Positions 11,329 through 24,029 of a DNA stretch of 64,000 nt are shown here, one piece after another (position 1 is the first letter of the stretch; each line of letters begins with the position of its first letter). The stretch lies in assembly GCA_043778145.1 (NCBI GenBank), contig JAYWGR010000002.1, positions 28,519 to 92,518 on the forward strand. The letters run 5' to 3'. The stretch comes from Rhizobacter sp. (lineage in GTDB: Bacteria > Pseudomonadota > Gammaproteobacteria > Burkholderiales > Burkholderiaceae_C). The notes under the pieces were generated by a model. It searched no databases and was not told where the DNA came from. It saw only the letters and a program-made list of their open reading frames with translations. The translations under genes and the position numbers were made by a program.

Positions 11329-12240
11329 ATGACGACGACGCCTGACTTGCCCGAGCAGCCCGCGTTGGCGCAGCCGGTTTCATCAGCCGAAGCGGCGGTG
11401 CATGCGTCGGCTGGCGCTGAAACACCTTCGGCCCAATCGCCATCACCTGATGCGCCTGCGGCCGATTCGCTCACAGCTTCCTCGGCAGCCGGCGATGCCG
11501 TCGCAGGTGAACTGGTTGCAACTGAGCAGGTTGACGCTGAAGTGGCATCAAGCGAACCAGGCGCTCACGAGCCAGTGTCTTCGCTTGCCGCCAAGCCACC
11601 GGAAGCGACGCCTGCCGAGACGGCCGCGGAGCTCCGAAAGCGCTTTCCAGGCTTGTTCGGCCACGGCGCCAAGCCATTGAAGCTGCGCATTCAGGCTGAC
11701 ATTCAGGAGCGGGCGCCCGGCGTGTTCACCAAGCAGGCGCTTTCGGCGTTCTTGCGTCGTCACACTGGCAGCACAAGTTACCTCATGGCGCTCAGCAAGG
11801 CGCGCGAGCGCTTTGACCTCGATGGCGCGCCGGCTGCTGAACTCGCGGCCGAGCACCGCGATGCGGCCATCGCCGAGCTGGCCCGCCGCCGTGAGAACCA
11901 GGTTTCGCGGCACGAGCTCGAGCGCCAGCAGCGCTTCAACCGCGCCGGCTTGTTGCGCGACTTTCAGAACACCACGCTGACGGCTCCTAACTTCTGCGCG
12001 CTCAAAGGCGTGGCGGTTGAAGAGCTCGATGGCTTGCTTGAGCTGGCCCGCCGTGAGGCGGAAGAAGACCGGGCGCAACGTGCAGCGATGCCCATGAACC
12101 AGCGGCCGGCCTCCCGCCCGGAACATCGCGCCGATCAACGCCATGATCCGCGCCCCGATCAACGCCCCAGCGGGCGCACCGATCGTCGGCCGCCACAGCG
12201 CCCGCCAACGGCGCGCCGCGACGGCCCCAAACCTCGCTAA
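11329..12240 (+). CDS. ProQ/FinO-family RNA-binding protein with a long low-complexity N-terminal region and an Arg/Pro-rich C-terminal tail
   Basis: The central segment (…KPLKLRIQADIQERAPGVFTKQALSAFLRRHTGSTSYLMAL…) resembles the ProQ/FinO N-terminal domain. The flanks are A/P/S-rich and R/P-rich. Confidence 0.6.
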   Translation: MTTTPDLPEQPALAQPVSSAEAAVHASAGAETPSAQSPSPDAPAADSLTASSAAGDAVAGELVATEQVDAEVASSEPGAHEPVSSLAAKPPEATPAETAAELRKRFPGLFGHGAKPLKLRIQADIQERAPGVFTKQALSAFLRRHTGSTSYLMALSKARERFDLDGAPAAELAAEHRDAAIAELARRRENQVSRHELERQQRFNRAGLLRDFQNTTLTAPNFCALKGVAVEELDGLLELARREAEEDRAQRAAMPMNQRPASRPEHRADQRHDPRPDQRPSGRTDRRPPQRPPTARRDGPKPR

Positions 12241-12247
12241 CGGTTAA

Positions 12248-12267
12248 GCGGAGCGTCATCGCTCCGC
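12248..12267 (+). terminator. short hairpin GCGGAGCG-tcat-CGCTCCGC just after the ProQ-like gene stop
   Basis: A perfect 8-bp inverted repeat. No U-tract follows. Confidence 0.25.
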
Positions 12268-12544
12268 GGGCTGCACTGGCTGTCGCAGGCATCCCGATGC
12301 TGCGCTGCAGCTCAGGGAATTTCCCGGGCGTGGCCGGATTGACGATGCCGTATCGCCCGCCTAGGCTTGCACGAGTCGGGATGGTTACTTGCGGGTAACG
12401 CCCCGTCGCTCTGGGCTCGCAAACGCTGCTCAAAGCGTCCACGTTGAGGCTTGGCGCGTGCCTTGATTGCGCCGTACCTGTGTTGCGTTCTTCGTGTTCG
12501 GCTACCGCCGCGCGCTGTGAACGTGATCATGGAGCGCGCTGAGT

Positions 12545-14821
12545 ATGGTGGCTACCAAGGCTCTCGATTCCCCATGGCGCAGCGGCGAAGCGCGCCAACA
12601 GGATCGCCACGCCAAGAAGGATGCCGTGTTGCTCACCGCGGCACGGCTCTTCTCTGCGAAGGGCTTCCAAAGCACCTCGCTCGATGACATCGCGGCCAGC
12701 CTCAAGGTCAGCAAGCCGACGCTCTACCACTACATCGACAGCAAGGAGCAAATCCTCTTCGAGTGCGTGCAGCGTGGCCTGGCTGACTTGCGCGCAGGCA
12801 TTCGGGCGGCCGCTGAGCGAGGCTTGCAAACGCGCGGCAGCTTGCGGGTGGCGATGGAGAACTACGCCGAGCTGGTGACCAGCGACTTCGGCATGTGCGT
12901 GATCCGGGTCGGCGAAGACCCGCTCTCTGACGCCAAGCGCCACGAGCTGCGCGCATTGAAGCGCGAGATTGACGCCGAGTTCCGCACGCTGATCGAGCAA
13001 GGCATGGCCGAGGGATGGATCGTGCGCGGCGATGCACACGTGGCGGCCTACACCGTCGTGGGTGCGCTGAGCGGTATTGGCCGTTGGTACCTGCCTGAGC
13101 GGCATGGCGCACAAAGCCTGGCTGATGCGGTGCAGCATTGCATCGAGATGCTGATGCGCGGCGTGCTCGGCGAGCCCACGGCCGATGCAAAACTTGCGCG
13201 CGCCAGCGAGCACGCATCAGCGGCCGGACCGATGGCGATTCGCCGTGAGACGCATTTCGACAACCGCATCGTGCGCTGTTTCGCCGAGCGGCCTGCGTCG
13301 CTGGCGGCGATGCTGGAGCGCGTCGTTCGCGAGCGGCCCCATGCCGAAGCCTTGGTCGCCGGTGATATTCGCCTCAGCTGGCGCGAGCTGCATCACGCAG
13401 CCCGAAAGTGCGCAGGCGGCCTCGCGTCACGGGGCGTGCATGCCGGTGACCGAGTCGCTGTCTTTCTCGGCAACGGCACCGAGTTCGTCATCACAACTTT
13501 GGCCTGCGCATGGCTCGGCGCGGTGCTCGTGCCGATCAGCGCACGCTCGCGCACGCCGGAGCTCGCGCATGCATTGCAAGATGCCGAGGCTGCGGCGATC
13601 GTCTGCGCAGCCGACTTGCTGCCCTTGCTTCCGGAGCGAGCTAGCTTGCCCGCGTTGCGCCTCGTGTGCAGCACTGGCGCAGCGCAAGCGGGTGTCGAGA
13701 GTTTCGCGGCGCTGATGCAATCGGCACCGCACCTCGAGCCGCACCGGGCCGGCGAAGACGAGCTCGCCGTGTTGCTCTACACCTCGGGCACCACTGGCAA
13801 GCCGAAAGGCGCAATGCTCAGCCACTTGAACATCGTCCATTCGCTGATGCACTACCGCGCGGTGATGGGCCTCACGGCAGACGAGCGCAGCATCGTTGCC
13901 GTGCCTTTGAGCCACGTCACCGGCCTGGTTGCGCAACTCTTCGTTGCCTTGCACTGCGGCTCGTGCCTCGTGCTGATGGCGCAGTTCAAGGCGGCCGATT
14001 TCGTCAAGCTCGCGGCCGCCGAGCACATGACCCACACGATCATGGTCCCCGCCATGTACAACCTTTGCCTGCTGCAAGTCGACCTTGCTGCGCACGACTT
14101 GAGCGCCTGGCGCATCGGTGCTTTCGGCGGTGCTTCAATGCCCACCGCCACCATCGAGAGCATGGCCGCACAACTGCCCGGCCTCACGCTGATCAACGCC
14201 TACGGCGCCACCGAAACCTGCTCGCCCGCAACCATCATGCCGCCGGGTTTGACGGCAGCTCGTGAAGACAGCGTCGGCCTGCCGGTGCCATGCGGTGAGA
14301 TCTGCATCGTCGATGAGGCCGGCCGCGAATTGCCGCGCGGTGAGATCGGTGAGATCTGGATCGCCGGGCCGATGGTTGTGCGCGGCTACTGGCGCAATGA
14401 AGCAGCCACGGCGAATGAGTTTTGCGGCGGCTACTGGCGCTCCGGCGACATCGGCACACAGGATGCCGAGGGCTTCGTTCGCATCCTCGACCGCAAGAAA
14501 GACGTGATCAATCGCGGTGGCTACAAGGTCTATTGCGCCGCGGTGGAGAGCGTGCTGGCCGAGCACCCGGAAGTGATCGAGGCGGCGTTGATCGGCGTGC
14601 CGTGCGCCGTGCTCGGCGAGCGAGTGCACGCCTTCGTCTGTGTGAGTGCGTTGGGCGAAGGCACACAGGCCGCGGCCCTGAAGGCGCATTGCGCTGCCCG
14701 CACCAGCGACTACGCCGTCCCCGAGACCTGGACGATCGGCACCGAGCCGCTGCCGCGCAACGCGAACGGCAAGGTGATGAAGCGCGAGTTGCGCAGCACG
14801 CTGCACGCCGCGTTGATTTGA
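12545..14821 (+). CDS. single 758-aa ORF encoding an N-terminal TetR-family HTH regulator domain fused in-frame to an AMP-dependent synthetase/ligase (acyl-CoA-synthetase-like) domain
   Basis: Residues ~20-210 carry the TetR signature (…LLTAARLFSAKGFQSTSLDDIAASLKVSKPTLYHYIDSKEQIL…). From the in-frame Met at 13232 (MAIRRETHFDNRIV…) onward there is a complete adenylate-forming enzyme (LLYTSGTTGKPKGAMLSH, …YGATE…, …WRSGDIG…RKKDVINRGGYKV…). No stop codon separates the two parts. Confidence 0.7.
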   Translation: MVATKALDSPWRSGEARQQDRHAKKDAVLLTAARLFSAKGFQSTSLDDIAASLKVSKPTLYHYIDSKEQILFECVQRGLADLRAGIRAAAERGLQTRGSLRVAMENYAELVTSDFGMCVIRVGEDPLSDAKRHELRALKREIDAEFRTLIEQGMAEGWIVRGDAHVAAYTVVGALSGIGRWYLPERHGAQSLADAVQHCIEMLMRGVLGEPTADAKLARASEHASAAGPMAIRRETHFDNRIVRCFAERPASLAAMLERVVRERPHAEALVAGDIRLSWRELHHAARKCAGGLASRGVHAGDRVAVFLGNGTEFVITTLACAWLGAVLVPISARSRTPELAHALQDAEAAAIVCAADLLPLLPERASLPALRLVCSTGAAQAGVESFAALMQSAPHLEPHRAGEDELAVLLYTSGTTGKPKGAMLSHLNIVHSLMHYRAVMGLTADERSIVAVPLSHVTGLVAQLFVALHCGSCLVLMAQFKAADFVKLAAAEHMTHTIMVPAMYNLCLLQVDLAAHDLSAWRIGAFGGASMPTATIESMAAQLPGLTLINAYGATETCSPATIMPPGLTAAREDSVGLPVPCGEICIVDEAGRELPRGEIGEIWIAGPMVVRGYWRNEAATANEFCGGYWRSGDIGTQDAEGFVRILDRKKDVINRGGYKVYCAAVESVLAEHPEVIEAALIGVPCAVLGERVHAFVCVSALGEGTQAAALKAHCAARTSDYAVPETWTIGTEPLPRNANGKVMKRELRSTLHAALI

Positions 14822-14853
14822 GCTGAGGTTTGTCGATGCGCCTCGATATCTTG

Positions 14854-14960
14854 CCCCCTCGCCCTTTTTGGGGAGATGGCTGGGGAGAGGGGCGATTGGC
14901 GACACGCCGGCGCTTGGGGGGCCCTCACCCCAACCCTCTCCCAGGGGGAGAGGGAGAGGA
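14854..14960. repeat. G/C-rich palindromic intergenic repeat, copy A (…GGGGAGATGGCTGGGGAGAGGGGCG…GCCCTCACCCCAACCCTCTCCCAGGGGGAGAGGGAGAGG)
   Basis: Shares the core GCCC(C)TCACCCCAACCCTC(T/C)CCC…GAGGGAGG and an upstream reverse-complementary arm with the copies at 17066-17179 and 22037-22149. Confidence 0.8.
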
Positions 14961-14990
14961 AGCCGAATCGAGAGCGAAAAAGGAGCAGGC

Positions 14991-15977
14991 ATGGCTGAAG
15001 TGGCGCGGCACCCTTTGAAGATCACCCAGCAGACGATCGTCTTCACCATCTTCGTGTTGATGTTCGTCGGCTTCGCTGTTCTCCTCCACGGCTTCTTCAC
15101 CGCAAGCAACTTGCTCGGCTTGTTGCAGAACGTGGCCATCCTCGGCATCCTCGGTTTGGCGATGGCCTTGATCGTGATCGGCCGCGGTATTGATATATCG
15201 ATGGTCGCGGTGCTTGCCGTGCCCGCGGGTCTGCTCTTGCAGCTCGTGCAAGACGGGTATTCGGTCGCTTTCGCGTTCATGGCCGCGGCAGGCATTGCCC
15301 TGCTCTTCGGCCTGCTCAATGGCTGGTTGGTTGCGTACGCCGAAGTGCCGTCACTGTTCACTACGTTGGCCTCGGGCCTCTTCCTCGCCGGCCTCGGCCA
15401 AGTCGCGTTCTTTCGGCTCGACGTGGTGCAGTGGAGCCCGCAGCTCGACGGCTTCGCCTGGCTCGGCCGTGGCAACCTCGGCGGCGTGCCGATGCCGGTG
15501 ATCATGTTCGGCATCGTTGCGGTCATCGTGTCGGTCTTTCTGCGGCGCACTCGCCTCGGCCAATACATCTATGCGATTGGCGACAACCCCACCGGCGCGC
15601 GCACCACCGGCATTCCGACGCGGCCGGTCATCGTGTTGCAGTACGTGCTCGCCGCGTTGATCGGCGCCTTCGCGGGCATGGTGATGGCCGCCTCAGTCAA
15701 CAGCATGCCGACGCGCATCTACAACTCCACCATGATTTACGACGTGATCCTCGTCGTCGTGCTTGGCGGCATTGGTCTCTCGGGCGGGCGCGGTGGTGTC
15801 GTCAACGTCGTGATCGGCACCGCGCTGATCGGCACGCTGCTCAACGGCATGACCATTCTCGATGTGTCGTACTCGGCGCAGAACCTCATCAAGGGCGTGA
15901 TCCTGTTGATCGCGATCCTCATCGATTCGTTTCTCAACCCGCGCAACGAAGAAACCGCTCAGCAGGGAGACATCTGA
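14991..15977 (+). CDS. sugar ABC transporter permease (RbsC/AraH-type, BPD_transp_2)
   Basis: Multi-TM protein with GRGIDISMVAVLA and …DNPTGARTTGIP… motifs typical of ribose/xylose-type permeases. The ATG at 14991 is preceded by AAAAAGGAGCAGG. The upstream part of the track ORF is translated repeat. Confidence 0.85.
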   Translation: MAEVARHPLKITQQTIVFTIFVLMFVGFAVLLHGFFTASNLLGLLQNVAILGILGLAMALIVIGRGIDISMVAVLAVPAGLLLQLVQDGYSVAFAFMAAAGIALLFGLLNGWLVAYAEVPSLFTTLASGLFLAGLGQVAFFRLDVVQWSPQLDGFAWLGRGNLGGVPMPVIMFGIVAVIVSVFLRRTRLGQYIYAIGDNPTGARTTGIPTRPVIVLQYVLAALIGAFAGMVMAASVNSMPTRIYNSTMIYDVILVVVLGGIGLSGGRGGVVNVVIGTALIGTLLNGMTILDVSYSAQNLIKGVILLIAILIDSFLNPRNEETAQQGDI

Positions 15978-16025
15978 CCCAGCGGCCCGCCGCCTTCACC
16001 ACCCGTGATTCCACAGGAGACAAGC

Positions 16026-17054
16026 ATGACAACGACACTCAGCAAACGATCGGTTCAGGCCGTGCTCACCAGCGCCGCATTGCTCGCCGGCATGGCGATC
16101 AGCGTGGCTGCGTTCGCACAAGGCAAAGGCCTCGACGAGCCGTTTCGCGCCACCTACAAAACCACGCTGGCCGGCAAGACAGTGGCATTCGTGCCCGTGG
16201 CGATGGGCTTCGATCTCGCGCAAGGTTGGTTTGAAGGCTTGAAGAAAGAGCTCGAACCGCTGGGCGTCAAGGTCATCTCGCGCGACCCGAACTGGAACAC
16301 GAGCGCAGGCGCGCAAGCGATCACCACGCTGATCAGCGAAAAGCCCGATGTGATCGTCGTCCACAACCCCGATGTGCAGACCTACGCCAAGCTGCTGCAA
16401 AAGGCCGAGGAGCAGGGCGTGCAGGTGGTGCAGATCAACATGCGGTCGAACTACCCGTCGGTTGTGTTCGTCGGTGCTGATTGGGTGGATGTGGGCGAGA
16501 AGGTCACCACCGCTGTCGTTGATTCATGCAAGGGCAAGTCGAACAAAGTCGCGATCGTGCAGGGCGCGCTCTCGGCCGCGGCGAGTGCCTACACGCTAAA
16601 AGGAGTGGAGAACGTGCTGGCCAAGCACCCGGAGGTGAAGGTCGTCTCAAGCCAAGCCGCCGATTGGGATGCTGCCAAGGCCAAGGGCATCACGCAGACC
16701 GTGCTGAAACAAAACCCCGACCTGTGCGGAATCATCGGCTTCTGGGACGGCATGGACATCGGCACCGCAGCCGCCATCAAAGAAGCGGGCTTGACCGGCA
16801 AAGTCTTCCTTGCAACTTCCGGTGGCGGCGAACAGAAGGGCGCGTGCGAGCAGGTCAAGTCCGGTGCGTTCGACTATGACCTCAGCTACGACGTGCCGAC
16901 CCAAGCCAGCAACATGGCCGCCTCGATCAAGTGGCTGCTGCAGAACAAGGGCAAGACGGGCACCGCCAAGGGCTCGATCTACACGACGCTGATACCGATC
17001 ACGAAGGCCAACGCAGGGACCGAAGGCACCTGCTGGAAGCTGACGAAGGGTTGA
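16026..17054 (+). CDS. sugar ABC transporter periplasmic substrate-binding protein (periplasmic-binding-protein type I, ribose/xylose-like)
   Basis: The signal peptide (…AALLAGMAISVAAFAQG) is followed by a periplasmic-binding-protein fold (…VAFVPVAMGFDLAQGW…VIVVHNPD…). An RBS, AGGAGACAAGC, precedes the ATG at 16026. Confidence 0.85.
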   Translation: MTTTLSKRSVQAVLTSAALLAGMAISVAAFAQGKGLDEPFRATYKTTLAGKTVAFVPVAMGFDLAQGWFEGLKKELEPLGVKVISRDPNWNTSAGAQAITTLISEKPDVIVVHNPDVQTYAKLLQKAEEQGVQVVQINMRSNYPSVVFVGADWVDVGEKVTTAVVDSCKGKSNKVAIVQGALSAAASAYTLKGVENVLAKHPEVKVVSSQAADWDAAKAKGITQTVLKQNPDLCGIIGFWDGMDIGTAAAIKEAGLTGKVFLATSGGGEQKGACEQVKSGAFDYDLSYDVPTQASNMAASIKWLLQNKGKTGTAKGSIYTTLIPITKANAGTEGTCWKLTKG

Positions 17055-17065
17055 GCGTTGATCTC

Positions 17066-17179
17066 TCTTTCTCCCTCTCCCTCTGGGAGAGGGCAGGGGT
17101 GAGGGCGAGCGTGCCGCTGAAAGCTAAGCGCAGCGGCCTGCCCCTCACCCCAACCCTCCCCCAGAGGGGCGAGGGAGGT
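17066..17179. repeat. G/C-rich palindromic intergenic repeat, copy B (CTCCCTCTCCCTCTGGGAGAGGGCAGGGGTGAGGGCGAG … GCCCCTCACCCCAACCCTCCCCCAGAGGGGCGAGGGAGG)
   Basis: The two arms are mutual reverse complements and each is internally palindromic. It is located between the binding-protein gene and the second permease. Confidence 0.8.
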
Positions 17180-17203
17180 CATCACGCTGGACGAGGAGTG
17201 CCT

Positions 17204-19414
17204 GTGAATGAAACTTTGAGCCCACCGCGTGTGGCCGCGGCAAGCGCCGCGGTGCAATCACCCGCTGCCGCAGCACGCCAGCAAGTCGAAGAGTCGCTGA
17301 CGGACACGCTCACCCGCCTGCGCTACCGCTACTGGCCTGACCACGCGCTCGGCGAGATCCTCGCCAAGCGCTGGATGGAGACGGCCATTCCGGTCATCGT
17401 GCTGCTGATCGTGGCCTTTGCCTTGTCGCGCGCGATACCGAACTTCCTCACCGCCGCAGCGCTCTCTGACACCGGCCGCCAGGCTGGTGAGATCGGCTTC
17501 ATCGTGCTCGGCATGGCACTCGTGATGATCGTGGGCGGCATCGATCTCTCGGTCGGCTCGCAGTTCGCGTTGACCAACTTGTGCGCGCTCTACTGCATGC
17601 ATGTGCTCAAGTGGCCGGTGCCTGCGGCAGTCGCCGCCACACTGGTTTGCGGCGCGGTGCTCGGCGCGGTCAACGGGGTGCTGATCGGCTACTTTCGGCT
17701 GCGCGCGTTCCTCACCACACTCATCACGCTGATCATCTACCGCGCGCTCTACGACCTGCTCACGGCTGACGTGGCTACCGCCATCGCCGGCAGCACGCCT
17801 GAATCGAAGGTGTGGGATTTCATCGGCAGCGGCGAGTGGCTCGGCGTGCCGGCGGTCGTCTATGCATATGCGGTGGTGGCGCTCTTCGGCCACATCTTCC
17901 TCACGCGGCTGCGGCCGGGCTGGCACGTCACCGCCATCGGCGGCTCGCGGCGCTCGGCCTACAACACCGGCATTGCAGTGCGCCGCACGGTGACGATGTG
18001 CTATGTGGCCAGCGGCGTGTTGACCTCGCTCGGCGGAATCTTCTTCGCGTCGCGCCTGGCCACAGCTGGCGGCGACATCGGCGTAGGCCTGGAGGTCACG
18101 GTGCTGACGGCGGCCGTGCTCGGCGGCATCAGCCTCGGCGGCGGCAAAGGCTCGGTGATGAAGGCGCTCGTCGGCACGCTGATCGTGCTGCTGATCATCA
18201 ATGGCTTGACGACCATGTCGCTCGACGGTGGCTACAACCGCATGGTGCTTGCCGCGATTTTGTTGCTCGCCGCGATGGTCGACATTCGCTGGCTCAAGAA
18301 CCGCCACCGCATCGTCAGCAAGGTCTACGTGAGCCCGACTTATCACGCGATGCCGCCTGCGCCATCGACTGCGCCCGACTGCGGCACGCCCTGGGCCTTG
18401 AACGACCGGTTGCGGCCGGCCACACCGATTGGCCTCGGCCGAATCGAAGGCCCGGAGGACGTGATCCTCGACCGCAACGACAACCTCTACGCCGGCTCGC
18501 GCCACGGCGACATCATTCGCTTCTTCGCGCCCGACTACCACCGCATGGAGATCTTTGCCCACATTGGCGGCACGCCACTCGGCATGGCCTTCGACCGCAA
18601 AGACAACCTCTATGTTTGCATCGGCGGCATGGGGCTCTACCGCGTCAGCCCGGAGCGCAAGGTAGAGAAGGTGACTGATGAGACCAACCGCAGCTACTCC
18701 TCCATCAACGACGACAGCCGCCTGCGCCTGGCCGATGACCTCGACATCACCGACGACGGCCGCATCTTCTTCTCGGAAGCCACCGTGCGCTTCGAGATGC
18801 ACGAGTGGGCAACCGATGGGCTAGAGGCCCGCGGCAACGGCCGCATCATTTGCTACGACACCAACACCGGCAAGACGCACACTGTCATCCGCGATTTGAA
18901 GTTCCCGAACGGCGTGTGCATCGCCAGCGACGGGCAATCGTTCTTGTTTGCCGAGACCTGGAACTGCAGCGTCAAACGCTATTGGTTTGACGGCCCGAAG
19001 AAAGGCACGCTGGAGCTCGTGCTGGAGAACCTGCCGGGCTTTCCGGACAACATCAACAACTCGTCTGACGGGAACTACTGGATGTCGCTCGTCGGCATGC
19101 GTTGCCCGGCGCTCGATCTGGCCTGGAAGATGCCCGGCTTTCGCAAGCGCATGGCCAAGCGCGTGCCGCGTGATGAGTGGCTCTTCCCGAACATCAACAC
19201 CGGCTGCGTGCTCAAGTTCAACGAGCGCGGCGAGGTGCTCGAGACGATGTGGGACTTGGGCGGCGAGAACCACCCGATGATCACCTCGATGCGCGAGCAC
19301 CGCGGCTACCTTTACCTCGGCGGCATCATGAACAACCGCGTCGGCAGGTTGAAGTTGGAAGGCGTTGACCCCGACTTCATCCAGTACGACCGGCGATGGG
19401 GGAGGGCCGCCTGA
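17204..19414 (+). CDS. ABC transporter permease (RbsC-type) fused at its C-terminus to a strictosidine-synthase-like / SMP-30-gluconolactonase-like beta-propeller domain
   Basis: A GTG at 17204 (GAGGAG upstream) begins a ~350-aa polytopic permease (…MIVGGIDLSVGSQFAL…). It is followed without any stop by ~370 aa carrying the SSL hallmarks (GRIEGPEDVILDRNDNLYAGSRHGDIIRF…, …NLPGFPDNINNSSDGNYWMSLVG…). Confidence 0.7.
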   Translation: MNETLSPPRVAAASAAVQSPAAAARQQVEESLTDTLTRLRYRYWPDHALGEILAKRWMETAIPVIVLLIVAFALSRAIPNFLTAAALSDTGRQAGEIGFIVLGMALVMIVGGIDLSVGSQFALTNLCALYCMHVLKWPVPAAVAATLVCGAVLGAVNGVLIGYFRLRAFLTTLITLIIYRALYDLLTADVATAIAGSTPESKVWDFIGSGEWLGVPAVVYAYAVVALFGHIFLTRLRPGWHVTAIGGSRRSAYNTGIAVRRTVTMCYVASGVLTSLGGIFFASRLATAGGDIGVGLEVTVLTAAVLGGISLGGGKGSVMKALVGTLIVLLIINGLTTMSLDGGYNRMVLAAILLLAAMVDIRWLKNRHRIVSKVYVSPTYHAMPPAPSTAPDCGTPWALNDRLRPATPIGLGRIEGPEDVILDRNDNLYAGSRHGDIIRFFAPDYHRMEIFAHIGGTPLGMAFDRKDNLYVCIGGMGLYRVSPERKVEKVTDETNRSYSSINDDSRLRLADDLDITDDGRIFFSEATVRFEMHEWATDGLEARGNGRIICYDTNTGKTHTVIRDLKFPNGVCIASDGQSFLFAETWNCSVKRYWFDGPKKGTLELVLENLPGFPDNINNSSDGNYWMSLVGMRCPALDLAWKMPGFRKRMAKRVPRDEWLFPNINTGCVLKFNERGEVLETMWDLGGENHPMITSMREHRGYLYLGGIMNNRVGRLKLEGVDPDFIQYDRRWGRAA

Positions 19415-20508
19415 TGGGCGCATTGGCTGAATGGAAGGACCGCCTGCTCGGCCGCGGTGACGCCGCCATCACCGTGCCAGTGTTCGATGGCGCGTTGAAG
19501 TCCAACAGCGTGCTGGAAGACGCAGCGGTGTTCGCCACGCTGCCCGAGGCCGATGACCTCGCGACCGATGGCAGGTCGCTCTTCGTTGCCGATCGCCAGC
19601 GCGTGCTGCGTTATGAAGGCAACGCCGCAGTCGAAGTGCAGCGCTTTGACAAACCGATCACGGCCATTGCATGCTTGGCTGAAGGCGGCATCGCCGTGGC
19701 GCTCGATGGGCGCGAGGTTCGCATCACAGGCGGCCCGAATGACGGCCGGCATTGGGAGGCCGTGGCCGGCCAGCCGCTGAACGCGGTCAACGCATTGAGC
19801 GCCACCGCCGATGGCCGGCTGATCGCGACCGATGGCTCGCGCGAGCACGCGGCGGCCGAGTGGAAGCACGACTTGATGAGCCTCGGCCACACCGGCCGCG
19901 CGGTCGAGTTGCGCGTGGCGGACGGCACCGCCCGCGAAATCGCCTCCGGCCTGTCGCATGCGTTCGGCGCTTGCGCGGTTGGCCAAGGCGTGTGGGTGAG
20001 CGAGAGCTGGCGCCACCGTGTGATGGCGCATGGCGAAGGCCGCAAGGCCACTGCCGTGACCGATTCCTTGCCCGGCTACCCGTCGCGCATCACGCCAGCC
20101 GCGGGCGGCGGCTACTGGCTCACCTGCTTCATCTTGCGCACGCAGCTCGTCGAGTTCGTGTTGCGTGAGCCGGCGTTCCGTCAACGCATGTTGAAAGAGA
20201 TCGAGCCGGCTTATTGGATTGCGCCGGCGTTGAACTCGGGCAACACTTTCCTGGAGCCGATGCAAGGGGCGCAGCTGAAGATGATGGGCATCGTCAAACC
20301 CTGGGCACCGCCACGCTCTTACGGCCTCGTCATCCGGCTCGATGCCGAAGGCCGCGTGCGCTATTCGCTGCACAGCCGCTTTGACGGCAAGAACCACGGC
20401 GTGGTGGCAGCCGTCGAATGCGTTGGTGATTTGTATGTGCTCGCCAAGGGGAGCCGGCGCGTCTTGCGTTTGAATGTGGCAGCTGCCGAACGGAGCTTGA
20501 GCGAATGA
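19414..20508 (+). CDS. standalone strictosidine-synthase-like/SMP-30-like beta-propeller protein, paralogous to the domain fused to the preceding permease
   Basis: Shares SLPGYPSRITPAAGGGYWLTCF with NLPGFPDNINNSSDGNYWMSLVG of the upstream fusion. Its ATG overlaps the upstream stop in a TGATG, and its own stop overlaps the ATPase start in an ATGA. Confidence 0.7.
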   Translation: MGALAEWKDRLLGRGDAAITVPVFDGALKSNSVLEDAAVFATLPEADDLATDGRSLFVADRQRVLRYEGNAAVEVQRFDKPITAIACLAEGGIAVALDGREVRITGGPNDGRHWEAVAGQPLNAVNALSATADGRLIATDGSREHAAAEWKHDLMSLGHTGRAVELRVADGTAREIASGLSHAFGACAVGQGVWVSESWRHRVMAHGEGRKATAVTDSLPGYPSRITPAAGGGYWLTCFILRTQLVEFVLREPAFRQRMLKEIEPAYWIAPALNSGNTFLEPMQGAQLKMMGIVKPWAPPRSYGLVIRLDAEGRVRYSLHSRFDGKNHGVVAAVECVGDLYVLAKGSRRVLRLNVAAAERSLSE

Positions 20509-22001
20509 CGACTCCCATCCTTGAACTGCGGCAAGCAGCGAAGAAGTACGCCGGCGTGCCCGCGATTGACGGCGTTGATTTCACGCTGCTGCGCGGCGAG
20601 ATCCATTCGATCATCGGCGAGAACGGCGCGGGCAAATCGACGCTGACCAAGGTGATGGCCGGCGTCGTCAACCTGAGCTCGGGGCAGATGCTGGTCGAGG
20701 GCCGCGAGGTGAACCCACGCACGCCCAACGAGGCCTTGCAACTCGGCGTGGCGATGGTCTTTCAGGAGACGAGCCTCGTGCCGACGATGACCGTCGCACA
20801 AAACCTCTACCTCGGGCAAGAGAGTTACTTCAACCGGCTGCGCGGCATCTACATCGCGGCGCAACAGTTCATGCAGTCGCTGCAGTTCGATGTCGACCCA
20901 ACTGCGCAGGTCAGCCTGCTCGGCGCCGCGAAGAAGCAGATGGTGGAGATTGCGCGCGCGGTGCTGCACAACGCCAAGGTCATCATCTTCGACGAGCCCA
21001 CCGCGAGCCTCACGCCGGAGGAGAAGAAGTACTTCTTCGACCTCGTCTTCAACCTGAAGGCGCGCGGCGTGTCGGTGGTGTTCATATCGCATGCGCTGGA
21101 AGAAGCGCTGCTCGTCTCCGACCGCATCACGATCCTGCGCGACGGCAAGCATGTGGTCACCGACGACAAGGCCAAATTTGACCGCGCGCGCATCGTGCAG
21201 GCGATGGTTGGCCGCGACCTCTCGCAGACGATGTATGGCCAGCGCAAGACCACGGTGCGGCCACAGGGCAAGCGGGTGCTCTCGGTGCAAAACCTGCGCA
21301 TGGCGGCGATGGTGAAGAACAACTCGCTCTCGGTTTTTGCGGGGCAAATCACCGGTGTGTTCGGGCTCGTGGGCTCGGGCCGCACCGAGACGTTCAAGGT
21401 CGTTGCCGGCGTCATCAAGAGAGATTTCATGCACGGCGGCGAAGTGCTGCTCAACGACCGGCCGGTGCGCTACTTCGTGCCGGCGCCTGCGGTGCGAGAC
21501 GGCATCGCGTATGTGACCGAAGACCGCAAGATCGAAGGATTCTTCGAGACGAAGTCGATCGCCGACAACATCTACCTCGGCCTGCTCGCCAAGCTGCGCG
21601 GCAAGCGAACGTTGGTGTCAGCCAAGGAGGCGGCCACGAGCGGCGAGCACTGGATCAAGCGGCTGAACATCCGCGCGATCAGCAAGGACGTGAAGGCGAT
21701 CGAGCTCTCGGGCGGCAACCAGCAGAAGGTGGTGATTGCGAAGTCGTTGATTCAGGAGCCGGAGCTCATCATCTTTGACGAGCCGACGCGCGGGGTTGAT
21801 GTCGGCGCCATCGCCGAGATTCATCAGCTCATCAATCAGCTGGCTGATGAGGGCAAAGCGGTGGTGGTGATCTCTTCTTACTTGCCGGAAATCATGTCGA
21901 TCTCAGACCGCATCTTGGTGCAGCGCATGGGCAAGGTGGTCGAGGAGTATTCGGCGCTCGATGCGAGCGAGGAGAAGATCATGTATGCGGCGATTCACTG
22001 A
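20505..22001 (+). CDS. sugar ABC transporter ATP-binding protein with two tandem nucleotide-binding domains (RbsA/MglA-type)
   Basis: Two Walker A-like regions (GENGAGKST; GLVGSGRTE), two LSGG signatures and Walker B (IIFDEPT). 498 aa. Confidence 0.9.
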   Translation: MTTPILELRQAAKKYAGVPAIDGVDFTLLRGEIHSIIGENGAGKSTLTKVMAGVVNLSSGQMLVEGREVNPRTPNEALQLGVAMVFQETSLVPTMTVAQNLYLGQESYFNRLRGIYIAAQQFMQSLQFDVDPTAQVSLLGAAKKQMVEIARAVLHNAKVIIFDEPTASLTPEEKKYFFDLVFNLKARGVSVVFISHALEEALLVSDRITILRDGKHVVTDDKAKFDRARIVQAMVGRDLSQTMYGQRKTTVRPQGKRVLSVQNLRMAAMVKNNSLSVFAGQITGVFGLVGSGRTETFKVVAGVIKRDFMHGGEVLLNDRPVRYFVPAPAVRDGIAYVTEDRKIEGFFETKSIADNIYLGLLAKLRGKRTLVSAKEAATSGEHWIKRLNIRAISKDVKAIELSGGNQQKVVIAKSLIQEPELIIFDEPTRGVDVGAIAEIHQLINQLADEGKAVVVISSYLPEIMSISDRILVQRMGKVVEEYSALDASEEKIMYAAIH

Positions 22002-22036: not shown

Positions 22037-22149
22037 CCCTCTCCCACTCGGAGCGGGCGGGGGAGAGGGCGGGGGTGAAGGCCCGGAGTACGCGTCGGCG
22101 CTCATCGACGCCCCTCACCCCAACCCTCTCCCCGGAGGGGCGAGGGAGG
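22037..22149. repeat. G/C-rich palindromic intergenic repeat, copy C (CCCTCTCCCACTCGGAGCGGGCGGGGGAGAGGGCGGGGGTGAAGGC … GCCCCTCACCCCAACCCTCTCCCCGGAGGGGCGAGGGAGG)
   Basis: Same family as copies A and B. Its 3' end (GAGGGAGG) sits 6 nt before the ATG at 22155 and can act as the Shine-Dalgarno sequence. Confidence 0.8.
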
Positions 22150-22154
22150 AAGAC

Positions 22155-22766
22155 ATGACCACCCAGCCGATCGAGTTCTACTTCGACTTCATCTCAGGCT
22201 ACGGGTACTTCGCCAGCCTGCGCATCGAGGCGATCGCCGCAAGGCACGGCCGACGAGTCGAGTGGCGCCCAATGCTGATCGGCGTTGCCGTGATGAAGGT
22301 GATGGGCTTGAAGCCACTTCTCGAGACGCCGCTCAAAGGCGACTACGTGATCCGTGATGCCGAGCGCTACCAGCGCCGCCACGGCCTTGTGCTCAAGCGC
22401 AAAGTGCAAGACCCGATGATGGACCCGCGCCCCGCAGCCCGCGCGTTCTGCTGGGCCAAGCGCCACCACGCCGATCAAGCCGCGCCACTGGCCAAGGCAA
22501 TCTTCGACAGCTACTGGCGCCTCGGCAACGACCTGGCCGATCCCGATCAGCTCGCAGCCGTGGCATCAGCCGTCGGGCTCGATCCCGGCGCGCTGCGCGA
22601 CGGCATCGCCAGTGAAGAGTCGCGCATCGACTTGCGCGAGAGCGTCGAAGCTGCGCTCGCTCGCGGCGTGTTCGGCTCGCCCTTTGTCATCGTCGACGGC
22701 GAGCCGTTCTGGGGCTCTGATCGGCTCGAGATGCTCGACGACTGGCTGAGCCAAAGCGGCTGGTGA
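22155..22766 (+). CDS. 2-hydroxychromene-2-carboxylate isomerase family protein (DsbA-like thioredoxin fold)
   Basis: Starts MTTQPIEFYFDFISGYGYFAS and ends …GSPFVIVDGEPFWGSDRLEMLDDWL. This is the typical HCCA isomerase / DsbA-like start and C-terminal motif. The track ORF starting at 22002 is extended by translated repeat. Confidence 0.75.
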   Translation: MTTQPIEFYFDFISGYGYFASLRIEAIAARHGRRVEWRPMLIGVAVMKVMGLKPLLETPLKGDYVIRDAERYQRRHGLVLKRKVQDPMMDPRPAARAFCWAKRHHADQAAPLAKAIFDSYWRLGNDLADPDQLAAVASAVGLDPGALRDGIASEESRIDLRESVEAALARGVFGSPFVIVDGEPFWGSDRLEMLDDWLSQSGW

Positions 22767-22790
22767 CACGTCAACCCGGAGAAGACAAAC

Positions 22791-24029
22791 ATGACCACAT
22801 CGCCCGCACCCGATGCGCTGCGCCCGCGGCCGCTTGAGGGCATCACCATCGTCGATGTGAGCCGCGTCGTCGCCGGGCCGTATTGCGCGCAAATGCTGGC
22901 CGACCTGGGCGCAACAGTCATCAAGGTCGAGCACCCGAGCGACCCCGATTACGTGCGCAGCTTTCCGCCGCGCGTGATGGATGCCGATCATGTTGACAGC
23001 GGCAGCGGCTACTTCGCGCAATACAACCGGCACAAGCTCGGCGTGAGCCTCGATCTGAAGCACCCTGACGGCAAGGCGCTCTTCATCGAGATGGCAGCCA
23101 AGGCCGATGTGGTGATCGAGAACTTTCGCCCCGGCACGATGGCCAAGCTCGGGCTTGACTATGCGGCGCTTGCCCAGATCAACCCGCGGCTGATCTACTG
23201 CGCAATCAGCGGCTATGGGCAGACGGGGCCGCATTCCAAGCGCCCGTCTTACGACAGCACCGCGCAAGCCGCGGGCGGCCTGTGGTCGATGAACGGCAGC
23301 CCGGGCGAGCCGGCCCCGCGCGTGGGCAGCATCATTGGCGACCTGGCCGCGTCGTTCTACGCAGCGATCGGCATTCTTGCGGCGCTGCGCGAAGCGGCCC
23401 AAAGTGGTCTAGGCCAGTTGGTGGATATCTCGCAGCAAGACTCGGTCGTCACGTTGACTGAAAGCGCAATCGTCAACTACACGGTGGCCGGCATCGTGGC
23501 CAAACCGCTGGGCAACGAGCACCCGTTCGCACGACCATATGGTCAATACGCCTGCAAGGACGGGCACGTCTTCTTCGGCTCCTACACCGACAAGCTCTGG
23601 CGCGACTCGTGCGTCATCTTCGGCGAACCCGAACTCGCCCACGACCCCGAGATCGACACGATGACCAAGCGCTTTGACGCCGCGACCTACGAACGCCGCG
23701 TCAAGCCCATCATCGCGCGGTGGTTCAGTCAGCGCACGCAGGCCGAGTTGGAGGCAATGGCGGGCGACCGCATTGCGCTCACGCCGGTCAAGCGGATCGA
23801 TGCCGTCGTGGCCGATCCGCACCTCGCCGCGCGCGAGATGTTTGTGCCGGTGCAGCTCGGCGCGGCCTCGGTGCAAGTGTTCGGCTCGCCGATCAAGCTC
23901 TCGGCCACGCCAGCGCGTGCGGCTGGCGCCGCGCCTGCATTGGGCGAGCACAACCGGCAGGTCTACCTCGATTGGCTCGGCATGCCGGCTCTGCGTTATC
24001 AGGCCTTGCGTGACAAAGGCGTGGTCTGA
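22791..24029 (+). CDS. CoA-transferase family III (CaiB/BaiF-type) protein
   Basis: …LEGITIVDVSRVVAGPYCAQMLADLGATVIKVE… signature, with the conserved Asp region (…GSIIGDLAAS…). Confidence 0.85.
   Translation: MTTSPAPDALRPRPLEGITIVDVSRVVAGPYCAQMLADLGATVIKVEHPSDPDYVRSFPPRVMDADHVDSGSGYFAQYNRHKLGVSLDLKHPDGKALFIEMAAKADVVIENFRPGTMAKLGLDYAALAQINPRLIYCAISGYGQTGPHSKRPSYDSTAQAAGGLWSMNGSPGEPAPRVGSIIGDLAASFYAAIGILAALREAAQSGLGQLVDISQQDSVVTLTESAIVNYTVAGIVAKPLGNEHPFARPYGQYACKDGHVFFGSYTDKLWRDSCVIFGEPELAHDPEIDTMTKRFDAATYERRVKPIIARWFSQRTQAELEAMAGDRIALTPVKRIDAVVADPHLAAREMFVPVQLGAASVQVFGSPIKLSATPARAAGAAPALGEHNRQVYLDWLGMPALRYQALRDKGVV

Follow-up and report, generated by a model that had tools for sequence, protein, structure and literature searches.

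A conserved fusion of a TetR regulator and an acyl-CoA ligase as a candidate repressor that makes its own effector

Among the one-component repressors of bacteria, regulators of the TetR type form the largest family; to our knowledge, they are almost always two-domain proteins of about 200 amino acids. Many of those that control the catabolism of acids respond not to the acid but to the coenzyme A (CoA) ester made by a separate ligase, and for PaaR/PaaX, with phenylacetyl-CoA from PaaK, and CouR, with p-coumaroyl-CoA, the product of the ligase is the effector. Here we analyse a gene in which a TetR regulator and an acyl-CoA ligase are joined in one protein of 758 amino acids, encoded at 12545..14821 on the plus strand of a 64,000-nucleotide stretch of DNA from Rhizobacter sp. 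(assembly GCA_043778145.1, contig JAYWGR010000002.1, positions 28,519 to 92,518), the whole of which is referred to below as the window.

The regulators closest to the TetR half are the TetR_C_24 acyl-CoA sensors AibR of Myxococcus xanthus (5K7F/5K7H/5K7Z) and TTHB023/PfmR of Thermus, which have the same DNA-contact residues as the fusion, a similar 16-bp palindromic operator before the regulator’s own operon and a neighbourhood of CoA-thioester metabolism, with FadR, MbdR and KstR2 as more distant members of the acyl-CoA-sensing group. The ligand of AibR is isovaleryl-CoA (PMC5389471), MbdR is paired with 3-methylbenzoyl-CoA (PMC4424350), and the TTHB023/PfmR operon contains acyl-CoA dehydrogenases, a ligase-related gene and a phosphotransferase (PMC7022988), in which it resembles the fused locus of Rhodoferax discussed below. 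However, proteins of the AibR/PfmR type are stand-alone, two-domain and ~190-230 amino acids long, whereas the fusion has a 526 amino acid enzyme attached after helix 9. The logic we propose is the one described for MbdR, namely that an acid is converted by a CoA ligase to an acyl-CoA, which releases the repressor and turns the pathway on (PMC4424350). In MbdR-type pairs, however, regulator and ligase are separate genes, whereas in the fusion they would form one chain that ties a basal inducer-forming enzyme to the repressor.

Enzymes that carry their own DNA-binding domain are also known. BirA, like the fusion, has an N-terminal helix-turn-helix (HTH) and an adenylate-forming ligase in one polypeptide, and its own reaction intermediate controls DNA binding (PMC6391492). 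The folds are nevertheless unrelated, a winged HTH and a ligase resembling class II aminoacyl-tRNA synthetases in BirA against TetR and an ANL ligase here, and BirA has no separate ligand-binding regulator domain, the adenylate being the co-repressor, whereas the fusion adds a complete ligand-sensing TetR domain. In PutA, NadR, RbkR and BzdR, the ‘trigger enzymes’, a DNA-binding domain is likewise combined with a metabolic enzyme module and regulation tracks the enzyme’s substrate, but the DNA-binding families and the enzymes differ from those of the fusion. BzdR consists of an HTH and a shikimate-kinase-like domain that senses benzoyl-CoA; there the sensor is the enzyme-like domain itself, which is not known to work as an enzyme of the pathway, whereas the fusion retains all catalytic motifs and has its sensor domain in addition. 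RbkR has been described as a riboflavin kinase and regulator (PMC5397151) and BzdR as an enzyme-derived transcriptional regulator (PMC3602430). Finally, direct binding to promoters has been reported for the acyl-CoA ligase FadD1 of Pseudomonas aeruginosa, a fatty-acid ligase of the ANL type that, as may be the case for the fusion, doubles as a transcription regulator and responds to a fatty-acid signal (PMC12754631), although FadD1 has no dedicated DNA-binding domain, a leucine-zipper-like motif in the ligase being credited instead, and the fusion has a canonical TetR module.

Judged by sequence, structural model and selection, the fusion places an enzyme module, competent as far as its motifs indicate, and a DNA-binding module in one polypeptide as bifunctional enzyme-repressors do. 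It is a variant among enzyme-repressor fusions and not categorically new, and the coupling of its two halves is something we infer. On balance we lean towards reading it as a repressor under its own control, with a ligase domain that supplies its acyl-CoA effector.

Regulator and ligase in one conserved reading frame

The original prediction, which was made from the sequence of the window, had read the 758 amino acid frame as a full TetR regulator followed by a full adenylate-forming enzyme, and this is borne out by an uninterrupted frame with an ATG start, no stop across the proposed junction of the two parts and four Pfam domains. These are TetR_N (PF00440), the HTH, at residues 29-74 (nt 12629-12766; 51.7 bits against a cut-off of 24, profile positions 2-47 of 47), TetR_C_24 (PF17932), the ligand-binding and dimerisation domain, at residues 100-207 (nt 12842-13165; 60.9 bits), AMP-binding (PF00501) at residues 257-616 (305 bits, with the entire model matched) and AMP-binding_C (PF13193) at residues 667-743 (50.3 bits), the last three also over their curated cut-offs. 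The Pfam comparison of both halves that the prediction had suggested therefore confirms two TetR and two AMP-binding domains, a result far beyond chance for one open reading frame (ORF), and the strings it had quoted are found, SKPTLYHYIDSKEQ at residues 56-69 and TSGTTGKPKG at residues 413-422. Taking Pfam together with an AlphaFold model and substitution rates, we assign residues 1-211 (12545..13177) to the TetR module; a flexible linker rich in A, S, P and G follows at residues 212-232 (21 amino acids, 13178..13240), and the acyl-CoA ligase module of the ANL superfamily comprises residues 233-758 (526 amino acids, 13241..14818; Pfam, NCBIfam and motifs), all on the plus strand.

Within the ligase module, the core motifs A3 (YTSGTTGKPKG, nt 13778-13810) and A10 (PRNANGK, with Lys743 at nt 14771-14773) are accompanied by A5 (NAYGATET), A7 (SGD) and A8 (RILDRKKDVINRGG), and the residues of all five are either invariant or conserved to at least 90% across alignments of 13 and 81 family sequences. 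To judge from these intact motifs, the C-terminal half is an ANL CoA ligase that should be catalytically competent, as the N-terminal half is, by its domain matches, a TetR-family regulator of the TetR_C_24 group. Foldseek comparison with solved CoA ligases gave target-normalised template-modelling (TM) scores of 0.70-0.79, and no chain in the PDB was found by Foldseek to span both halves, the matches covering ~500 columns with a query-normalised TM of ~0.5. In NCBIfam the C-terminal 500 residues fall among acyl-CoA synthetases, but the best model, PRK06187, scores 426.8 bits against a cut-off of 476, all 25 best models listed are below their cut-offs and the FadD model PRK08974 reaches 241.8 bits against 884. 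The ligase should therefore not be called FadD, the earlier ‘FadD-like’ being too specific, and is better described as an ANL-type CoA ligase; assignment of a substrate through NCBIfam was rejected for the same reason.

The alternative that two adjacent genes, tetR and a ligase gene, have been joined by a sequencing or assembly error, or by recent loss of a stop codon, has next to no chance of being correct. An identical protein is encoded on contigs of at least four separate assemblies or samples. In a collection of 5.8 billion proteins the best 120 clusters (at 90% identity) are 62-100% identical to the window protein and nearly all 727-783 amino acids long, and the four Pfam domains are listed for every one of them except a partial 700 amino acid entry, so that the architecture extends throughout these clusters down to 62% identity. 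Likewise, each of 16 related loci with a fused gene can be read without a break from the start of TetR to the stop of the ligase (757-992 codons), whereas the two nearest stand-alone relatives end after ~235-243 codons. These loci are uninterrupted although their linkers differ in length and sequence, and this diversity excludes a systematic sequencing error. Comparison of orthologous loci, as had been proposed, showed that relatives with a TetR half at least 53% identical are never split into separate genes, and in an exhaustive search the nearest stand-alone TetRs were 49-52% identical. The gene is thus a genuine, conserved fusion, and the lost or mis-sequenced stop that the original prediction had entertained is refuted.

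An alignment of 13 members shows two strongly conserved blocks flanking a segment that is variable in length and sequence; this junction segment (window residues 209-236) measures 24-40 amino acids among members and its sequence cannot be aligned. The ratio of non-synonymous to synonymous substitutions (dN/dS), determined by the Nei-Gojobori method on the close pairs L089/L090 and L092/L096 (related fused loci), is 0.07-0.10 for the TetR half and 0.07-0.11 for the ligase half but 0.65-0.92 for the linker. Both halves are equally strongly purified by selection, whereas the linker drifts almost neutrally. In the AlphaFold model, built from the 81 family sequences, the TetR module folds into nine helices within residues 14-205, with a mean predicted local distance difference test (pLDDT) score of 80-92 in blocks of ten residues across residues 21-210, and the N-domain of the ligase has a pLDDT of 93-99, whereas linker residues 214-226 fall below 50 and the predicted TM score (pTM) of the whole model is 0.62. 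The model is that of two folded modules joined by what appears to be a flexible tether.

The internal methionine to which the original prediction had drawn attention is present in this linker as Met230 (nt 13232), although it is not a conserved feature. It could mark the start of an additional, or even the main, free ligase, as a relic of an ancestral start, with the full-length protein mainly regulating, an idea that does not exclude the other readings but that we consider very improbable. In 7 of the 13 aligned members a Met lies here or close by, in an ‘M-P-x-x-R-R-E’ context that resembles the N-terminus of a stand-alone Bradyrhizobium ligase (L005, ...IPPMRLEARF). However, it is absent in the other six, no Shine-Dalgarno-like sequence precedes Met230 in the window (GCGGCCGGACCGATG) and the linker around it evolves nearly neutrally, so that a conserved internal start at Met230 was dropped as unsupported.

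The boundary of the fused family is sharp. When residues 1-245 were searched exhaustively by HMMER against 1.84 billion representatives (clustered at 50% identity), one full-length fused representative was returned, P0101, of 770 amino acids; the other close TetR relatives in this search are at most 49% identical and are stand-alone proteins (~200-290 amino acids), double-TetR proteins (~400-500 amino acids) or shorter fragments. Among metagenome loci, TetR halves of at least 53% identity are always fused, save for L103, a fragment cut by a contig end, and those of at most 52% are never fused. Named members come from Variovorax, Rhodoferax ferrireducens, Ramlibacter and Burkholderiales/Burkholderiaceae metagenome-assembled genomes. 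The sharp identity boundary and the named members together point to a single fusion event in one narrow clade, apparently a Comamonadaceae-like lineage.

The stand-alone ligases nearest to the fused one, with 50-54% identity, are those of Bradyrhizobium (L005 and L008, 50-52%) and a paralog in the Rhodoferax cluster (54%). They belong to the same subfamily across residues 216/232-753 of the fusion but, at 543 amino acids, are without the TetR module, and no TetR gene is adjacent to the one in L005. A genome scan with the full-length alignment was dominated by the generic YTSGTTG ligase motif and brought up no fused gene in a named genome, and metagenomes were then scanned with the TetR half; among the 80 generic ligase loci from named genomes, a distant (27%) TetR lies within 8 kb in two and is fused in none. 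One apparent match to residues 25-753 (L038) was rejected as a fusion, being a ligase gene followed by a separate double-TetR gene.

Proteins of this kind are already in databases under generic names, such as ‘AMP-binding protein’ or, at JGI, ‘acyl-CoA synthetase .../AcrR family transcriptional regulator’. Full-text literature searches returned no paper on a TetR-ANL ligase fusion, which agrees with the earlier impression that it had not been described.

Predicted operator and ligand of the regulator half

Upstream of the fused gene lies a perfect 16-bp palindrome, GTTACTTGCGGGTAAC (GTTAC-N6-GTAAC), at 12384-12399 (unstranded), which we regard as a putative operator. It is unique in the window even when two mismatches are allowed, and with at most two mismatches it recurs before all 13 fused genes compared, its distance from the coding start being almost constant; the leader between operator and start is ~100 nt longer in the window. 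Among 167 fetched loci, together more than 1.5 Mb, those with the exact palindrome have a single copy, always directly upstream of a TetR frame of the fused family, with the addition of one stand-alone TetR locus (L101, below), and a version with two mismatches, GTTACTTGCGAGTAGG, is found at the start of a divergent ligase gene beside a stand-alone TetR of 52% identity (L102). The site was detected only through comparison of the 13 upstream regions, since its 5-bp arms are shorter than the seed of a first inverted-repeat scan (seed 6, arms at most 40 nt apart), which missed it. GTTAC-N6-GTAAC looks like a TetR autoregulatory operator and is our candidate site; a conserved AGTCAA hexamer stands 5-6 nt before it.

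The stand-alone TetR in L101 was given little weight as evidence for the operator, as it is a mosaic on a 2.2-kb contig with 3x coverage. Its first 82 codons are identical in encoded residues to those of the fused gene in L092, beyond which the two differ in the ligand-binding domain; the DNA further upstream, which includes the operator, is also similar (L101 1-1224 against L092 723-1864, 86% over a 1.1-kb alignment); an enoyl-CoA hydratase gene follows. Paralogs with a common DNA-binding domain and operator may have recombined, or the low-coverage assembly may be chimeric.

A second conserved upstream block, GATGCTGCGCTGCAGCTCAGGGAATTTCCC (12297-12325, unstranded), contains the short palindromes TGC-N5-GCA and AGGG..CCC and has the consensus aTGTTGCrCTGCAGCTmAGGGaAt..CC. 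Ten of the 13 upstream regions contain it, at 72-75 nt before the operator (84 nt in the window), and it accompanies the fusion gene irrespective of which gene lies further upstream (L086-L092, L096, L099 and the window). The block may be a promoter or a binding site for a second protein, such as another regulator. As an RNA element it was rejected, having no Rfam match and no conserved RNA fold, and as a leader peptide because the frames differ in length and stop at different places. Terminator-like matches between 12100 and 15100 were at background level.

Profile searches of solved structures with the TetR half gave as best matches 3vpr, which we take to be PfmR (1e-24), 3dcf (2e-24) and AibR (5k7f, 2.4e-21), followed by DarR, proteins named as regulators of fatty acid metabolism (8sv6, 3whb), Mce3R, MbdR and KstR2, MbdR (4uds) being detectable with E = 1.9e-13. 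A HMMER alignment combined with the contacts listed for AibR (PMC5389471) places its base-specific contacts Lys47 and Tyr51 at K57 and Y61 of the window protein, and its backbone contacts Arg14, Ser35 and Lys57 at K24, S45 and K67; all five are invariant in the 81 family sequences. In addition, a Ser-Pro-Trp motif (S9-P10-W11, nt 12569-12577) before helix 1 is at least 90% conserved in the fused family. The same motif occurs in L101, L102 and stand-alone TetRs of 40-47% identity, whose tblastn matches start at residue 9. Lying in a disordered N-terminal arm, it looks like a hallmark of this TetR subfamily and possibly contacts DNA or a partner.

The solved relatives with known ligands are mostly CoA-thioester binders, while DarR is reported to bind c-di-AMP (PMC10636190). 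The loop between helices 8 and 9 through which AibR contacts CoA, K172-W-F-K175-P, aligns with R180-W181-Y182-R183-P184 of the family, where R180, W181 and P184 are invariant and position 183 is Arg in most members; AibR Trp169 and Tyr171 align with Gly in the fusion. Genes of CoA-ester metabolism also surround the stand-alone relatives, with a divergent ligase gene and a FadB-like gene, a BKACE and an acyl-CoA dehydrogenase near the one in L102, and an IcmF-type mutase, thiolase, SDR, ETF-QO and ligase near those in L153 and L131. From the CoA-thioester-binding relatives, the partly matching CoA loop and these neighbourhoods, we infer that the TetR pocket of the fusion binds an acyl-CoA.

Stand-alone TetR_C_24 relatives of 40-47% identity share a constant neighbourhood (L105, L107, L113, L131, L137, L151, L153 and L162), in which a 1155 amino acid fused mutase of IcmF type (B12-binding, MeaB and mutase) is divergent from the TetR gene and a thiolase, an SDR, an ETF-QO and an acetoacetyl-CoA-synthetase-like ligase come after it. 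This is probably a regulon of branched or short acyl-CoA metabolism.

How the two halves may work together

In the mechanism we favour, the TetR module would dimerise and bind GTTAC-N6-GTAAC before its own gene, and the bound repressor would shut the operon, that is, the fusion gene and then, in most members, a sugar-type ATP-binding cassette (ABC) importer with lactonase-like propellers. The tethered ligase module would convert the cognate carboxylic acid, with ATP and CoA, to an acyl-CoA, and this would enter the TetR ligand pocket, upon which the protein would leave the DNA and the operon be induced. The acid might, as a speculation, be derived from a lactone opened by the propeller domains. 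Through the fusion, the inducer-making enzyme would be present wherever the repressor is, in a 1:1 ratio, and the inducer would be produced beside the sensor. A logic like that of BirA or PutA is plausible for such a protein and is supported by the conserved operator, the position in the operon and the ancestry among CoA sensors.

Several observations weigh against this mechanism. The candidate operator lies 145 nt from the start codon in the window, while in most relatives its centre is ~30-76 nt upstream, and a scan of 12100-15100 gave no convincing sigma-70 promoter around it. Residue 183 of the CoA loop is Leu and not Arg in the window protein and in P0002. The low pTM and disordered linker show no sign of a fixed inter-domain interface in the AlphaFold model, so that any ‘channelling’ would be by proximity only. 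The transporter is of a sugar type, and a sugar is no substrate for the ligase unless first converted to an acid; moreover, the transporter context is missing in L085 and in L098, where another ligase gene follows the fusion, and partly in L088, where the first permease alone remains. Lastly, AibR binds its operator only with isovaleryl-CoA (PMC5389471).

This behaviour of AibR, and that of BirA, whose own adenylate is the co-repressor (PMC6391492), raise the possibility of reversed polarity, in which the product-bound form of the fusion would bind the operator and the activated acid would shut off both its uptake and the synthesis of the ligase, as feedback homeostasis. We think this decidedly unlikely, as the controlled genes are an importer and an activating enzyme, and His114, which drives the unusual switch of AibR, corresponds to Glu124 in the fusion.

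A less unlikely alternative, which we take seriously though we do not prefer it, is that both halves work but are uncoupled. The TetR half would then sense the free acid, the imported compound or a CoA ester made elsewhere, and the ligase would be a pathway enzyme fused to it for co-expression only, as in a ‘Rosetta-stone’ pair. Nothing in the long, disordered and nearly neutral linker or in the pTM indicates communication between the domains, the stand-alone relative in L102 beside its ligase gene has the appearance of an ordinary regulator and its target, and Leu183 in the window weakens the argument from the CoA loop. However, a ligand-independent reason for keeping the halves covalently joined, with a dN/dS of ~0.1 in both across the clade, is not obvious. 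Furthermore, in those systems where the ligand is known it is mostly a CoA thioester and is the product of the pathway ligase. This is the case for the effectors of the paa, mbd and fad regulons. The CoA-thioester ligands themselves are documented for AibR (PMC5389471) and for MbdR (PMC4424350).

Coupling could also be closer than in our preferred mechanism of an effector made by the ligase domain and bound by the TetR pocket. The catalytic cycle may gate the repressor directly, the acyl-CoA, a held acyl-adenylate or the swing of the ligase C-domain being passed on to the TetR pocket within the chain or dimer, so that the protein would read the flux through its own active site and not the cellular pool. 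In ANL ligases this swing is one of 140 degrees. We consider direct gating quite unlikely; if it were true, the fusion would be a private, insulated ‘catalysis-coupled’ one-component switch that might be re-engineered as a carboxylic-acid biosensor.

Downstream genes and significance of the fusion

The genes downstream of the fusion are likely co-transcribed with it and encode, by Pfam and NCBIfam, an importer of the CUT2 (monosaccharide) type (14991..22001, plus strand). They are a permease (14991-15977), a Peripla_BP_4 binding protein (16026-17054), a permease fused in-frame to a strictosidine-synthase-like/SGL (lactonase-type) beta-propeller (17204-19414), a propeller-like protein of 364-370 amino acids with no Pfam or NCBIfam match (19414-20508) and a double ABC ATPase (20505-22001). 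The same databases identify a DSBA-like protein (22155-22766) and a family III CoA-transferase (22791-24029), also on the plus strand, at the end of the cluster; the linkage of these two (22155..24029) to the fusion is less consistent, the CoA-transferase being present in L086 and absent from L087. All transporter components score below the NCBIfam equivalog cut-offs, and naming a transporter substrate from NCBIfam was rejected since every match is below its cut-off.

Of 12 distinct fused loci with sufficient sequence, nine have the transporter genes in the order given above after the fusion gene, while the genes upstream vary (ProQ in the window, EAL in L086 and AraC in L087). The fusion stop overlaps the permease start in L086 (ATGA) and the gap is 27 nt in L087; in the window it is 170 nt, contains a palindrome resembling repetitive extragenic palindromic (REP) elements, and no terminator-like site was found between 14821 and 14991. 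GC-rich REP-like elements of the form CCCTCTCCC-N3-GGGAGAGGG occur at 14934-14954, 17073-17093 and 22037-22057, each in an intergenic gap of the operon (three matches where 0.01 would be expected), and a 27-nt inverted repeat (17079-17105/17142-17168) lies near the second. These elements account for the 170-nt gap behind the fusion gene, a gap not seen in relatives, and inflate mechanical ORF calls, for example an 827 amino acid ORF from 16931 and an ORF from 14868.

The permease-propeller fusion is kept in L086, L087, L089, L090, L092-L097 and L099 and appears uncharacterised. The 364-370 amino acid protein that follows has 22-31% tblastn similarity to it. On the other side, upstream of the regulatory region of the fusion and directly after typA/bipA, lies the gene of a 303 amino acid ProQ/FinO-domain protein (11329-12240) with an N-terminal extension of ~95 residues rich in A, S, P and E and a basic tail rich in P and R; in L001-L003 a minus-strand ORF of 198 amino acids is called where this gene lies.

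The Rhodoferax ferrireducens locus (L085, CP000267.1, 1055616-1077949) is organised differently, with the fusion gene between two branched-chain-type ABC transporters. Three enoyl-CoA hydratase genes precede it, and downstream come one of these transporters, a second ligase, an APH-type kinase and an acyl-CoA dehydrogenase; an NMO-type oxidoreductase also belongs to the cluster, and its ligases besides the fused one number two in all, one of them the 54% paralog of the fused ligase. The set of ligase, kinase and dehydrogenase recalls the Thermus PfmR (TTHB023) operon (PMC7022988).

If the two halves proved to be uncoupled, the protein would be an ordinary Rosetta-stone fusion and mainly evidence that the two subfamilies work together. 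In either case, the predicted operator and effector class offer a handle on an uncharacterised ABC importer with a permease fused to a lactonase-like propeller. If the coupling is true, the fusion would provide a scaffold for acid biosensors that combine the specificity of a ligase with the output of a TetR regulator. It would also be a natural solution to the problem of ‘who makes the first inducer’, and would join BirA, PutA and a few other enzyme-repressors as one built from two very common parts.

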